A stretch of DNA of 64,000 bases from Escherichia coli (GTDB lineage: Bacteria > Pseudomonadota > Gammaproteobacteria > Enterobacterales > Enterobacteriaceae): the NCBI RefSeq assembly GCF_003790525.1, contig NZ_CP033635.1, one strand, 5' to 3'. Position numbers and translations under genes: made by a program. Positions within the stretch are counted from its first letter, which is position 1, and each line of letters begins with the position of its first letter. The notes under the pieces were generated by a model. That model was not told the origin of the DNA. It did no database searches and saw nothing but the letters and a program-made list of their open reading frames with translations. Positions 12,696-58,668 of this stretch are shown here, piece after piece.

Positions 12696-12807
12696 CCCCG
12701 GCTAGACCGGGGTGCGCGAATACTGCGCCAACACCAGGGAAATCTTGGCTGCGCCGTAAATTATTATGATGAGTTACAAGGGCACAGCACTGTTTTTCAG
12801 GCCGCAC
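12687..12807 (-). ncRNA. arcZ: small RNA ArcZ (RyhA/SraH), 121 nt, overlapping the arcB 3' end
   Basis: Reverse strand reads GTGCGGCCTGAAAAACAGTGCTGTGCCC...CACCCCGGTCTAGCCGGGGTCATTTTTT, matching the ArcZ sequence as I remember it, including its terminator hairpin. Confidence 0.85.
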
Positions 12808-34277: not shown

Positions 34278-34396
34278 AATCTCGCGCTAACAACCTGGAA
34301 TCGAGCCGTCATACTACGGCGCAACGCCCTATAAAGTAAACGATGACCCTTCGGGAACTTCAGGGTAAAATGACTATCAAAATGTGAATTGTAGCT

Positions 34397-34431
34397 GACC
34401 TGGGACCTGTACCCGGGTCGGTATTTTTTTT
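34397..34431 (+). terminator. intrinsic terminator/attenuator in the greA leader (GraL-type leader RNA)
   Basis: gaccuggg / cccggguc 8-bp stem with one G-U pair, then 8 T's, about 95 nt upstream of the greA start. Confidence 0.6.
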
Positions 34432-41082: not shown

Positions 41083-41169
41083 GCCGAGGTGGTGGAATTG
41101 GTAGACACGCTACCTTGAGGTGGTAGTGCCCAATAGGGCTTACGGGTTCAAGTCCCGTCCTCGGTACCA
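41083..41169 (+). tRNA. leuU: tRNA-Leu (anticodon GAG), 87 nt with encoded CCA
   Basis: GCCGAGGTGGTGGAATTGGTAGACACGCTACCTTGAGGTGGTAGTG...GGTTCAAGTCCCGTCCTCGGTACCA; long variable arm, cloverleaf foldable by eye. Confidence 0.93.
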
Positions 41170-44951: not shown

Positions 44952-45028
<77 letters not shown>

Positions 45029-45150
45029 CTTTCCCTTAGAGTCCTTTTTCAAATATACTGTGAAGACTTCGGCCTTCGTAGTGGGATTTGAAAAAATCCT
45101 TCTGGAAAGTGCTCCAGACCGCAGTTGCGGTTATAGGGTTCAGTTATATA

Positions 45151-45175
45151 AAGCCCCGATTTATCGGGGTTTTTT
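45151..45175 (+). terminator. hairpin plus T-run between metY and rimP (partial terminator/processing site)
   Basis: aagccccga-ttta-tcggggtt followed by TTTTT; a second weaker hairpin plus T7 lies at about 45199..45217. Confidence 0.6.
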
Positions 45176-45234
45176 GTTATCTGACTACAGAATAACTGGG
45201 CTTTAGGCCCTTTTTTTATGTCTTGGGGGTGGGC

Positions 45235-49899: not shown

Positions 49900-49916
49900 G
49901 GTTTTTAGGGTTCCAT

Positions 49917-49986
49917 GCGGGATAAGGCGTTTACGCCGCATCCGGCATGGATTGCCTGATGCGACGCTGGCGCGTCTTATCAGGCC
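49917..49986. repeat. REP/BIME element (two inverted REP units) in the infB-rbfA spacer
   Basis: gcgggataaggcgtttacgccgcatccggca followed by gcctgatgcgacgctggcgcgtcttatcaggcc, both classic E. coli REP consensus sequences. Confidence 0.85.
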
Positions 49987-51460: not shown

Positions 51461-51826
<366 letters not shown>

Positions 51827-51842: not shown

Positions 51843-51870
51843 AAAAGGGGGCCTGAGTGGCCCCTTTTTT
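51843..51870 (+). terminator. rpsO intrinsic terminator
   Basis: aaaa-ggggcc-tgagt-ggcccc followed by TTTTTT. Confidence 0.8.
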
Positions 51871-51920
51871 CAAGCTGACGGCAGCAATTCACTGGAAACT
51901 AATGTATTGTTGCTATGAAT

Positions 51921-52017
51921 GATCTTCCGTTGCAGAGGTTCGCGCGGCTAATGAGAGGCTTTACCCACATTGGGCTGGGTTAGGGTTGTCATTAGTCGCG
52001 AGGATGCGCAGAAGATC
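51921..52017 (+). promoter_or_regulatory. long imperfect stem in the pnp 5' leader (RNase III autoregulatory processing hairpin)
   Basis: gatcttc (51921..51927) pairs with gaagatc (52011..52017) closing an about 95-nt structured leader; function assigned from knowledge of E. coli pnp. Confidence 0.45.
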
Positions 52018-54316: not shown

Positions 54317-55201
54317 ATGAAGCCTTTTTTGCGCTGGTGTTTCGTTGCGACAGCACTTACGCTTGCAGGATGCAGTAATACTTCCTGGCGTAAAAGTGAA
54401 GTCCTCGCGGTACCATTGCAACCGACTTTACAGCAGGAAGTGATTCTGGCACGTATGGAACAAATCCTTGCCAGTCGGGCTTTAACCGATGACGAACGCG
54501 CACAGCTTTTATATGAGCGCGGAGTGTTGTATGATAGTCTCGGTCTGAGGGCATTAGCGCGTAACGATTTTTCGCAAGCGCTGGCAATCCGACCGGATAT
54601 GCCTGAAGTATTCAATTACTTAGGCATATATTTAACGCAGGCAGGCAATTTTGATGCTGCCTATGAAGCGTTTGATTCTGTACTTGAGCTTGATCCAACT
54701 TACAACTACGCGCACTTGAATCGCGGGATCGCATTATATTACGGCGGTCGTGACAAGTTAGCGCAAGATGATCTGCTGGCGTTTTATCAAGACGATCCTA
54801 ATGATCCTTTCCGTAGTCTGTGGCTTTATCTCGCCGAGCAGAAGCTCGATGAGAAGCAGGCTAAAGAAGTGTTGAAACAGCACTTCGAAAAATCGGATAA
54901 GGAACAGTGGGGATGGAACATTGTCGAGTTCTACCTGGGCAACATTAGCGAACAAACGTTAATGGAAAGGCTCAAGGCGGACGCAACGGATAACACCTCG
55001 CTCGCTGAGCATCTCAGTGAAACCAACTTCTATTTAGGTAAGTACTACCTAAGTCTGGGGGATTTGGACAGCGCCACGGCACTGTTCAAACTGGCGGTTG
55101 CCAACAACGTTCATAACTTTGTTGAGCACCGATACGCATTGTTGGAATTATCGCTCCTGGGCCAGGACCAAGATGACCTGGCAGAATCGGACCAGCAATA
55201 G
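54317..55201 (+). CDS. nlpI: TPR-repeat lipoprotein NlpI
   Basis: 294-aa ORF with lipobox LTLAGC. Confidence 0.95.
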
Positions 55202-55380
55202 CTGACGTACACATCAGCCCGTAATCTTTTTTGATTGCCATCACCTTAACGGGTGAGGGCGTTGTTGTTCGTTAATACACCTACTTTGAGCCGGTTCACA
55301 CTTTTCAATGAAAATTGCTGATCAATTTCATGATGAGTTATGTAGACTGGCCGCCATTAATTTTGAGGCACACGTACTAC

Positions 55381-57270
55381 ATGGCTGAATTCGAAACCAC
55401 TTTTGCAGATCTGGGCCTGAAGGCTCCTATCCTTGAAGCCCTTAACGATCTGGGTTACGAAAAACCATCTCCAATTCAGGCAGAGTGTATTCCACATCTG
55501 CTGAATGGCCGCGACGTTCTGGGTATGGCCCAGACGGGGAGCGGAAAAACTGCAGCATTCTCTTTACCTCTGCTGCAGAATCTTGATCCTGAGCTGAAAG
55601 CACCACAGATTCTGGTGCTGGCACCGACCCGCGAACTGGCGGTACAGGTTGCTGAGGCAATGACGGATTTCTCTAAACACATGCGCGGCGTAAACGTGGT
55701 TGCCCTGTACGGCGGCCAGCGTTATGACGTGCAATTACGTGCCCTGCGTCAGGGGCCGCAGATCGTTGTCGGTACTCCGGGCCGTCTGCTGGATCACCTG
55801 AAACGTGGCACTCTGGACCTTTCTAAACTGAGCGGTCTGGTTCTGGATGAAGCTGACGAAATGCTGCGCATGGGCTTCATCGAAGACGTTGAAACTATTA
55901 TGGCGCAGATCCCGGAAGGTCATCAGACCGCTCTGTTCTCTGCAACCATGCCGGAAGCGATTCGTCGCATTACCCGCCGCTTTATGAAAGAGCCGCAGGA
56001 AGTGCGCATTCAGTCCAGCGTGACTACCCGTCCTGACATCAGCCAGAGCTACTGGACTGTCTGGGGTATGCGTAAAAACGAAGCACTGGTACGTTTCCTG
56101 GAAGCGGAAGATTTTGATGCGGCGATTATCTTCGTTCGTACCAAAAACGCGACTCTGGAAGTGGCAGAAGCCCTTGAGCGTAACGGCTACAACAGCGCCG
56201 CGCTGAACGGTGACATGAACCAGGCGCTGCGTGAGCAGACACTGGAACGACTGAAAGATGGTCGTCTGGACATCCTGATTGCGACCGACGTTGCGGCCCG
56301 TGGCCTGGACGTTGAGCGTATCAGCCTGGTAGTTAACTACGATATCCCGATGGATTCTGAGTCTTACGTTCACCGTATCGGTCGTACTGGTCGTGCGGGC
56401 CGTGCTGGCCGTGCGCTGCTGTTCGTTGAGAACCGTGAGCGTCGTCTGCTGCGTAACATTGAACGCACCATGAAGCTGACCATTCCGGAAGTTGAACTGC
56501 CGAACGCAGAACTGCTGGGCAAACGTCGTCTGGAAAAATTCGCCGCTAAAGTACAGCAGCAGCTGGAAAGCAGCGATCTGGATCAATACCGTGCACTGCT
56601 GAGCAAAATTCAGCCGACGGCAGAAGGTGAAGAGCTGGATCTCGAAACTCTGGCCGCCGCACTGCTGAAAATGGCACAGGGTGAACGTACTCTGATTGTT
56701 CCGCCAGATGCGCCGATGCGTCCGAAACGTGAATTCCGTGACCGTGATGACCGTGGTCCGCGCGATCGTAACGACCGTGGCCCGCGTGGTGACCGTGAAG
56801 ATCGTCCGCGTCGTGAACGTCGTGATGTTGGCGATATGCAGCTGTACCGCATTGAAGTGGGCCGCGATGATGGTGTTGAAGTTCGTCATATCGTTGGTGC
56901 GATTGCTAACGAAGGCGACATCAGCAGCCGTTACATCGGTAACATCAAGCTGTTTGCTTCTCACTCCACCATCGAACTGCCGAAAGGTATGCCGGGTGAA
57001 GTGCTGCAACACTTTACGCGTACTCGCATTCTCAACAAGCCGATGAATATGCAGTTACTGGGCGATGCACAGCCGCATACTGGCGGTGAGCGTCGTGGCG
57101 GTGGTCGTGGTTTCGGTGGCGAACGTCGTGAAGGCGGTCGTAACTTCAGCGGTGAACGCCGTGAAGGTGGCCGTGGTGATGGTCGTCGTTTTAGCGGCGA
57201 ACGTCGTGAAGGCCGCGCACCGCGTCGTGATGACTCTACCGGTCGTCGTCGTTTCGGTGGCGATGCGTAA
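55381..57270 (+). CDS. deaD: DEAD-box ATP-dependent RNA helicase DeaD/CsdA
   Basis: ORF contains [21 protein letters not shown]...; motifs [26 protein letters not shown]; Arg/Gly-rich C-terminal tail. Confidence 0.96.
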
Positions 57271-57312
57271 TCATCGCTGAACAGCGAATACAGTCTGTAA
57301 AATAATATATAC

Positions 57313-57343
57313 AGCCCCGATTTTAATAATCGGGGCTTTTTTT
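57313..57343 (+). terminator. intrinsic terminator after deaD
   Basis: agccccgatt-ttaat-aatcggggct followed by TTTTTTT. Confidence 0.8.
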
Positions 57344-57423
57344 CTGTCTTTTGTACTCATGTACTGGTACAGTGCAATGCATAACAACGCAGTCGCACTA
57401 TTTTTCACTGGAGAGAAGCCCTC

Positions 57424-58668
57424 ATGGCAACACTAACCACCACCCAAACGTCACCGTCGCTGCTTGGCGGCGTGGTGATTATCGGCGGCACCATTATTGG
57501 CGCAGGGATGTTTTCTCTGCCAGTGGTCATGTCCGGGGCGTGGTTCTTCTGGTCAATGGCGGCGCTGATCTTTACCTGGTTCTGTATGCTGCATTCCGGC
57601 TTGATGATTCTGGAAGCTAACCTGAATTATCGAATCGGTTCGAGCTTTGACACCATCACCAAAGACCTGCTCGGCAAAGGCTGGAACGTAGTCAACGGCA
57701 TTTCCATTGCCTTTGTGCTCTATATCCTGACTTACGCCTATATTTCTGCCAGCGGTTCGATTCTGCATCACACCTTCGCGGAGATGTCGCTGAACGTCCC
57801 TGCACGGGCAGCTGGATTTGGTTTTGCACTACTGGTGGCGTTTGTGGTGTGGTTGAGCACCAAAGCGGTCAGCCGGATGACGGCGATTGTGCTGGGGGCG
57901 AAAGTCATTACGTTTTTCCTCACCTTCGGTAGCCTGCTGGGACATGTGCAGCCAACGACCTTGTTCAACGTTGCCGAAAGCAATGCGTCTTATGCGCCGT
58001 ATCTGCTGATGACACTGCCATTCTGTCTGGCATCTTTTGGTTATCACGGTAACGTGCCGAGCCTGATGAAGTATTACGGCAAAGATCCGAAAACCATCGT
58101 GAAATGCCTGGTGTACGGTACGCTGATGGCGCTGGCGCTGTATACCATCTGGTTGCTGGCGACGATGGGCAACATCCCTCGTCCGGAGTTTATCGGCATC
58201 GCCGAGAAGGGCGGTAATATTGATGTGCTGGTACAGGCGTTAAGCGGCGTGCTGAACAGCCGTAGCCTGGATCTGCTGCTGGTTGTGTTCTCAAACTTTG
58301 CGGTAGCGAGTTCGTTCCTCGGCGTTACGCTGGGTTTGTTTGACTATCTGGCAGATCTGTTTGGTTTCGATGACTCGGCTATGGGCCGCTTGAAAACAGC
58401 GTTGCTGACCTTTGCCCCGCCTGTTGTGGGTGGCCTGCTGTTTCCTAACGGATTCCTGTACGCCATTGGTTATGCTGGCTTAGCGGCTACCATCTGGGCG
58501 GCAATTGTTCCGGCGCTGTTGGCCCGCGCATCGCGTAAACGCTTTGGTAGCCCGAAATTCCGCGTCTGGGGCGGCAAGCCGATGATTATGCTGATTCTGG
58601 TATTTGGCGTTGGCAACGCACTGGTCCATATCTTATCGAGCTTTAATTTGCTGCCGGTGTATCAGTAA
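57424..58668 (+). CDS. mtr: tryptophan-specific permease Mtr
   Basis: 414-aa polytopic [37 protein letters not shown]... Confidence 0.95.

Follow-up and report, generated by a model that had tools for sequence, protein, structure and literature searches.

A degenerate Arg/Gly-rich peptide repeat in the C-terminal tail of the Escherichia coli RNA helicase DeaD and its reflection in the 3' end of deaD

This analysis concerns the last part of deaD (csdA), the gene for a cold-shock DEAD-box RNA helicase, in a 64,000-nucleotide (nt) stretch of Escherichia coli DNA (contig NZ_CP033635.1 of assembly GCF_003790525.1; hereafter, the window). The direct repeats found at this site represent a genuine repeat in the encoded peptide, with the DNA repeat being its shadow. 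Taken jointly with this peptide repeat and with the functional model given below, the identification of the stretch as the end of deaD, encoding an Arg/Gly/Glu-rich, presumably unstructured C-terminal tail, can be held with high confidence. The gene, its domain architecture, and the tail (PF12343) are all already catalogued, and the find is an ordinary one with nothing new in kind. The additions made here are modest: the exact parse of the repeat units, the demonstration of a codon-bias shadow, and two naturally occurring length alleles described down to their junctions.

The tail comprised 62 residues (568–629) and was located immediately after the folded DbpA-type RNA-binding domain (RBD). 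Its composition included 20 Gly, 19 Arg, 7 Glu, 4 Asp, and 4 Phe, so that Arg and Gly together made up 63% of the residues and 19 basic residues stood against 11 acidic ones. The motif GERR occurred four times at regular positions and a Phe closed each unit. Parsing at the terminal Phe revealed four copies of the degenerate form x-G-E-R-R-E/G-G-G-R-x-F on a base period of 11 codons, copies 3 and 4 being lengthened. The initial annotation had described imperfect direct repeats of about 45 nt starting at position 57060; however, the units measured 33, 33, 45, and 63 nt, and the first of them began 22 nt later, at 57082. The intervening 57060–57081 codes for GDAQPHT, which represents the end of the RBD and a short linker. 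The peptide quoted in that annotation was the exact translation of the forward strand in the deaD frame, and its description of the tail as a known low-complexity one agrees with the existence of a Pfam family. Its warning that naive repeat finders may be misled was also borne out, as the region was flagged both by the tandem repeat finder TRF, with an array at 57083–57177 (period 33, 2.9 copies, 70% matches, score 99), and by a seed-based repeat finder, with families spaced 33/45 and 15/33/45/63 nt. A second low-complexity stretch could be observed within deaD at 56738–56832, in the linker between the dimerization domain and the RBD, where short direct repeats recur at spacings of 9, 15, and 27 nt. 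The seed-based finder joined this linker to the tail (families D1 and D2) because both are CGT/GAY-rich. TRF also marked 56702–56725, and in relatives the linker between the two domains varied in length and composition.

The self-similarity of the region was assessed against mononucleotide, codon, and residue shuffles (2000 each) and against synonymous-codon permutations with the peptide kept fixed (5000). The self-similarity that had been predicted for a dot-plot was evident when mononucleotide shuffles served as the null, since none of the 2000 reached the whole-region offset identity. It was likewise evident in the best local DNA segment, where 36 of 42 nt matched at an offset of 78, a score reached by one of 2000 codon shuffles, and in the peptide, where a self-match of 20 residues at an offset of 11 was reached by none of 2000 residue shuffles. 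The prediction did not hold for the whole region when codons were shuffled, as 383 of 2000 shuffles reached the observed identity; much of the dot-plot signal therefore comes from biased composition alone. Whole-region offset identity, which cannot separate a repeat from biased composition, was dropped as the dot-plot statistic and replaced by the local segment score and the synonymous permutation. In the latter, 28 of 48 comparisons between identical residues aligned across units showed a shared codon; the null averaged 30.5, and the observed value was reached in 4408 of 5000 permutations. Since codon sharing between units was not raised, there is no DNA similarity beyond that due to the peptide and the codon bias, and the synonymous-codon test gave no sign of recent duplication or homogenization. 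The codon bias of the tail was seen in the use of CGT for 17 of 19 Arg, of GAA for 6 of 7 Glu, and of GGT or GGC only for Gly.

The window could be identified as E. coli chromosome, and the repeat as the 3' end of deaD/csdA, because family membership, architecture, genomic context, and genome matches all pointed to it. The encoded protein matched the NCBIfam DeaD equivalog NF008642 with 1397.5 bits (cut-off 989), residues 1–629 aligning to profile positions 1–628. Pfam analysis revealed the order PF00270 DEAD (30–196), PF00271 Helicase_C (232–340), PF25399 DeaD_dimer (374–443), PF03880 DbpA (489–558), and PF12343 DeaD_C (568–629), so that full-length family membership and the five-domain order were both found. 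The DeaD_C match (45.6 bits against a gathering cut-off of 23.3) covered the whole profile, positions 1–62 of 62. Two entries of the PDB, 5GI4 and 5B88, are fragments of DeaD and matched the dimerization part and the RBD part, respectively. No chain in the PDB reached beyond residue 564, at which the RBD construct 5B88 stops; this gap is consistent with the Pfam label "DeaD helicase C-terminal disordered region". A 571-nt stretch from the deaD 3' end was matched in 5425 of 5426 complete E. coli genomes, where the RefSeq label is deaD, with 100% identity to strain SC516 and approximately 98% identity to K-12. These matches confirm the earlier naming of the region as the Arg/Gly-rich C-terminal tail of DeaD. 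The deaD 3' end was unmatched in one of the 5426 genomes, and in one genome a second copy was present on a plasmid-typed record. The features located in and around the tail are listed in Table 1.

Table 1. Coordinates of deaD, its tail, the repeat units, and associated elements within the window
Feature	Position	Strand	Description	Basis
deaD (csdA) coding sequence	55381–57270	+	ATG at 55381; 629 codons and stop	Open reading frame list, NCBIfam, Pfam, RefSeq annotation
C-terminal low-complexity tail	57082–57267	+	Residues 568–629	PF12343; composition
Unit 1	57082–57114	+	11 codons, 33 nt	Terminal-Phe parse; TRF period 33
Unit 2	57115–57147	+	11 codons, 33 nt	Terminal-Phe parse; repeat families D2–D4
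Unit 3	57148–57192	+	15 codons, 45 nt; the sole 45-nt unit	Terminal-Phe parse; D4 spacing 45
Unit 4	57193–57255	+	21 codons, 63 nt; most degenerate	Terminal-Phe parse; D3 spacing 63
GGDA and stop after unit 4	57256–57270	+		
12-nt sub-unit CGTGAAGGCGGT	57127–57138	+	R-E-G-G in unit 2; tandemly duplicated in the +12 allele	Alignment, translations
Octamer GCGTCGTG, left copy	57090–57097	+	Junction of the -132 allele	Alignment, sequence
Octamer GCGTCGTG, right copy	57222–57229	+	Exactly 132 nt downstream of the left copy	Alignment, sequence
Intrinsic-terminator-like hairpin	57313–57344	+	10-bp stem with 6 G-C pairs, 5-nt loop, then T run	Consensus scan

Variation within E. coli was evaluated by aligning deaD 3' ends between strains, a check proposed in the initial annotation, which yielded two length alleles, both in frame and both situated on internal repeats. 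Compared to K-12, the last 420 nt of deaD carried six coding single-nucleotide polymorphisms (SNPs). All six were synonymous, which argues for selection on the tail peptide, and the tail peptides of the two strains were identical; six further SNPs were intergenic and lay downstream. The +12 nt allele is a tandem duplication of CGTGAAGGNGGT (57127–57138) and gives a DeaD of 633 amino acids (AA) (WP_001306022.1), 4 AA longer. Its carriers were counted by means of a 56-nt query across the junction, to which a full-length match is possible in carriers alone. The whole 56-mer was present in 158 of 5426 complete genomes (2.9%), including strains 042, PCN033, and 51489, and 160 genomes had at least 99% identity to a 263-nt +12 query. 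As the two counts are nearly the same, the +12 allele fits a single shared haplotype that goes back to one old event and was inherited vertically. Counting the allele by identity bands was attempted and rejected as ambiguous, the 12-nt gap spreading carriers and non-carriers across the 95% boundary. A further 26 E. coli genomes matched just the first 33 nt of the +12 probe, which corresponds to GGT in place of GGC at 57133–57135 (a Gly of unit 2) without the insertion; such genomes could represent the state from which the +12 allele arose, or one of the two copies could have been lost secondarily.

The -132 nt allele is an in-frame deletion joining the two GCGTCGTG octamers and was seen in one genome, that of strain FXCREC035. 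The resulting DeaD is 585 AA long (a deletion of 44 AA) and has none of the GERREGGR cores; the allele may be an assembly error. At least 80% of the query was covered in 5423 of the 5425 matched genomes, FXCREC035 being one of the two genomes below that coverage. The census of rare alleles is a lower bound. Gain or loss of exactly one 33-nt unit was not found among the alleles seen. An apparent 2-nt length change in strain E200086 (H99) was rejected, as its DeaD protein is that of K-12 and the difference falls past the stop codon. Frequent copy-number polymorphism was thus not observed, the length changes being the sub-unit duplication (158 of 5426 genomes) and the deletion in a single one. 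In an otherwise stable E. coli tail, the short DNA repeats do occasionally yield in-frame indels by slippage or microhomology; such changes are infrequent within the species and have built up from genus to genus. The earlier suggestion that the region is recombination-variable accordingly held weakly within the species, by virtue of these two alleles, and clearly between genera.

Relatives in other genera were obtained by a homologue search using the C-terminal 156 AA of the protein. They were mostly partial proteins, few of them named, and are suited to comparisons of tail length and motif counts rather than to species-resolved or DNA-level comparison. In the DeaD fragments of other Enterobacterales, the RBD was nearly invariant up to the start of the tail. 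The tails across genera were 56–89 AA long and contained 0–4 GERR-type motifs. Like that of E. coli, the DeaD tails of Klebsiella, Enterobacter, Yersinia, Serratia, Pantoea, Hafnia, and Proteus were Arg/Gly/Glu-rich, with GERR(E)GG units and a terminal RRRFG(G)DA. They differed in detail, as Klebsiella-like tails had one more 11-residue unit and a duplicated APRRDD, Yersinia/Serratia-like tails were richer in Pro, Ala, and Asn, and Vibrio-like tails were rich in Arg, Asp, Asn, and Lys without GERREGGR. One relative (P0012) independently showed the REGG expansion that characterizes the +12 allele of E. coli, and in another (P0035) two units had been lost. The distal units (...RRRFGGDA) held their position in both E. 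coli and Klebsiella-like sequences; this positional orthology argues against wholesale concerted evolution.

As to function, the tail may behave as a flexible, net-positive polyampholyte, judging from its composition and the literature. It would add sequence-independent RNA contacts beside the RBD, serving in tethering and strand annealing, and its multivalent charge-driven contacts may help DeaD to build condensates or foci, with the specific high-affinity anchoring of RNA presumably residing in the neighboring RBD. A paper summarizing Xu et al. 2017 (PMC11850223) describes the RBD as the principal site by which CsdA anchors RNA. In the same summary, a construct with the core, the dimerization domain, and the RNA recognition motif but lacking the tail had ATPase and unwinding activities above those of the dimeric core alone. 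A role as a second, non-specific RNA site has been suggested for the basic C-terminal extension (PMC1616957), and the basic C-terminal domain has been put forward as the likely source of strand annealing that needs no ATP (PMC3590231). In E. coli, DeaD gathers in foci, and its phase separation is salt-dependent (PMC7414142, PMC9232405, PMC12758526). The initial annotation had called the tail RNA-binding; for the tail itself, we infer this from its basicity and from reviews, the documented RNA affinity being that of the adjacent folded RBD (PMC11850223). The tail-length alleles could in principle be functional variants, with the extra R-E-G-G in approximately 3% of genomes and the GERREGGR-less allele shifting RNA tethering or the condensate threshold, which we regard as rather unlikely. 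If true, tail-length alleles would affect cold growth or the persistence linked to DeaD condensates, and the number of units would be a slowly evolving tuning knob across Enterobacterales.

Several observations weigh against this interpretation of the repeat and its role. No accessible experiment assigns RNA binding, annealing, or condensation to residues 568–629 alone, the statements in the literature covering the whole protein or the whole C-terminal domain (PMC3590231, PMC11850223, PMC12758526). A 2026 preprint on CsdA and NAD-capped RNA and a paper on NudC-CsdA contained nothing specific on these residues. The disorder of the tail is a putative one, consistent with the Pfam family description, with the end of 5B88 at 564, and with the Arg and Gly content. 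The existence of FXCREC035, a clinical isolate without any GERREGGR unit, indicates that the repeats are not essential for viability, unless its allele is an assembly error. Finally, the tail fails the usual RGG-box patterns, and any analogy to eukaryotic RGG domains is a loose one.

Four other explanations of the stretch were considered. It is very unlikely that it constitutes a true hypervariable DNA tandem repeat, resembling a variable number tandem repeat or a contingency locus, in which copy number changes frequently by recombination or slippage and the units are homogenized by gene conversion. Such a repeat would account for the head-to-tail copies reported by TRF as an array, for the exact placement of both E. 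coli indel alleles on internal repeats, and for the variation of tail length by genus. However, the units are approximately 70% identical and of unequal length, and no DNA identity beyond the requirement of the peptide was found, with codon identity between units showing no excess (28 of 48 against 30.5). The distal units are also positionally orthologous in Klebsiella-like sequences, query coverage is 80% or more in nearly all matched genomes (5423 of 5425), and the sole common length variant, present in 158 genomes, fits one old vertical event. Less credible again is the absence of any real repeat, the periodicity being a chance product that any Arg/Gly-rich low-complexity segment might give. 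The failure of the whole-region offset identity to rise above codon shuffles (383 of 2000) is what this explanation would lead one to expect, but chance did not reproduce the 20-residue self-match (0 of 2000 residue shuffles) and reproduced the 42-nt segment once (1 of 2000 codon shuffles). It also leaves aside the four regular, GERR-containing and Phe-ended units and the recurrence of the unit in other genera.

A canonical RGG-box RNA-binding domain of the eukaryotic type, as in FMRP, hnRNP U, or Ded1-type helicases, is scarcely tenable. The tail was searched by regular expressions for the RGG/RG patterns, which are reportedly defined by Thandapani et al. in 2013 as repeats with spacers of 0–4 residues. 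No tri-RGG, di-RGG, or tri-RG was found in it, while one di-RG was present (RGGGRG, residues 572–577), and a single RGG tripeptide stood against three GGR and four GERR. The 11 regularly interspersed Glu and Asp residues make the tail a polyampholyte and not a plain RGG box, and the candidate was rejected on these pattern tests, notwithstanding the Arg and Gly content of 63% and the attachment of the tail to a phase-separating DEAD-box helicase (PMC12758526). The probability is practically negligible that the repeat serves a second gene overlapping deaD in a different frame or on the opposite strand, a structured RNA, or a regulatory element at the deaD 3' end. Frame +1 is open over the tail (57065–57280, 71 AA, Val/Ala-rich), as are two frames on the reverse strand, but such openness is an expected by-product of repeated CGT, GGT, and GAA codons, which read as poly-Val/Ala, poly-Thr/Ala, or Pro/Arg/Ser strings. 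These frames were rejected as genes on that ground. No Rfam family reached its gathering threshold over the tail, and the coding SNPs relative to K-12 were all synonymous in the deaD frame, which both indels keep. The reading that is retained is a degenerate peptide repeat in the tail of DeaD, written in a few preferred codons.

The surroundings of the tail were those of the E. coli deaD locus. Upstream, an open reading frame (ORF) of 294 AA with lipoprotein-like features occupied 54317–55201, which is probably nlpI, given the order of genes at this locus in E. coli. Downstream, the tryptophan permease gene mtr (414 AA, 57424–58668) could be recognized from the ORF list, and it adjoins deaD in annotated RefSeq loci; the neighborhood thus reads nlpI-deaD-mtr, with nlpI as a putative assignment. 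The longest ORF of deaD begins at a TTG at 55315, 22 codons before the ATG at 55381. The extension at 55315–55380 is probably not translated, as the NCBIfam profile starts at the ATG and the RefSeq proteins have 629 AA. An antisense ORF of 425 AA rich in Thr, Phe, Gln, and Val runs within deaD on the reverse strand (55735–57012) and looks like a shadow ORF of a strongly biased sense frame, not a gene. The terminator-like hairpin lies 43 nt past the deaD stop codon and ahead of mtr. It forms a stem-loop on either strand, with the T run on the forward side, and its loop or loop edge holds three of the six intergenic SNPs relative to K-12 (57325, 57327, and 57328), the G-C stem being intact. Elsewhere in the window, Rfam matches at gathering level included ArcZ (12700–12807, reverse strand), the greA leader (34308–34429), two tRNAs (41083–41166 and 44952–45025), the rimP leader (45117–45217), naRNA4/CssrE (49916–49986), the S15 leader (51499–51613), and SraG (51843–52014, reverse strand), as expected for the E. 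coli chromosome upstream of deaD.

The stretch serves as an example of a false lead from repeat finders, in which a tandem match in a highly expressed gene can arise wholly from a repetitive peptide that is spelled with two or three favored codons. The Phe-ended parse into 11, 11, 15, and 21 residues provides a cleaner anatomy for the design of tail truncations. Furthermore, the allele with 4 additional AA (158 genomes) and the 44-AA deletion (one isolate) are ready-made variants for studying the role of the tail in RNA tethering, cold growth, and condensates.

Compared with known systems, the protein studied here agrees with E. coli K-12 DeaD/CsdA (WP_001295553.1) in its length of 629 AA, its tail peptide, its domain order, and its neighborhood, and the two genes differ in the synonymous coding and the intergenic SNPs described above. 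The +12 protein (WP_001306022.1) shares units 1, 3, and 4 and differs in unit 2 by the duplicated R-E-G-G. Eukaryotic RGG/RG boxes resemble the DeaD tail in being Arg/Gly-rich, of low complexity, and borne by RNA-binding proteins, whereas the DeaD tail departs from the tri-RGG, di-RGG, and tri-RG patterns and is rich in Glu and Asp. E. coli is not known to have an arginine-methylation system. The intrinsically disordered regions of RhlE1 and RhlE2, the basic tails of Mss116 and CYT-19, and the extensions of SrmB and RhlE are, as the DeaD tail presumably is, disordered positive appendages that follow the helicase core. Non-specific tethering of RNA and the promotion of phase separation are the roles suggested for such appendages of DEAD-box proteins (PMC11260450, PMC3590231, PMC9232405). 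The DeaD tail has no sequence homology to these extensions, and unlike those placed directly on the core it follows a dimerization domain and a folded RBD. It is further distinguished from them by the regular acidic/basic periodicity of its GERREGGR units.

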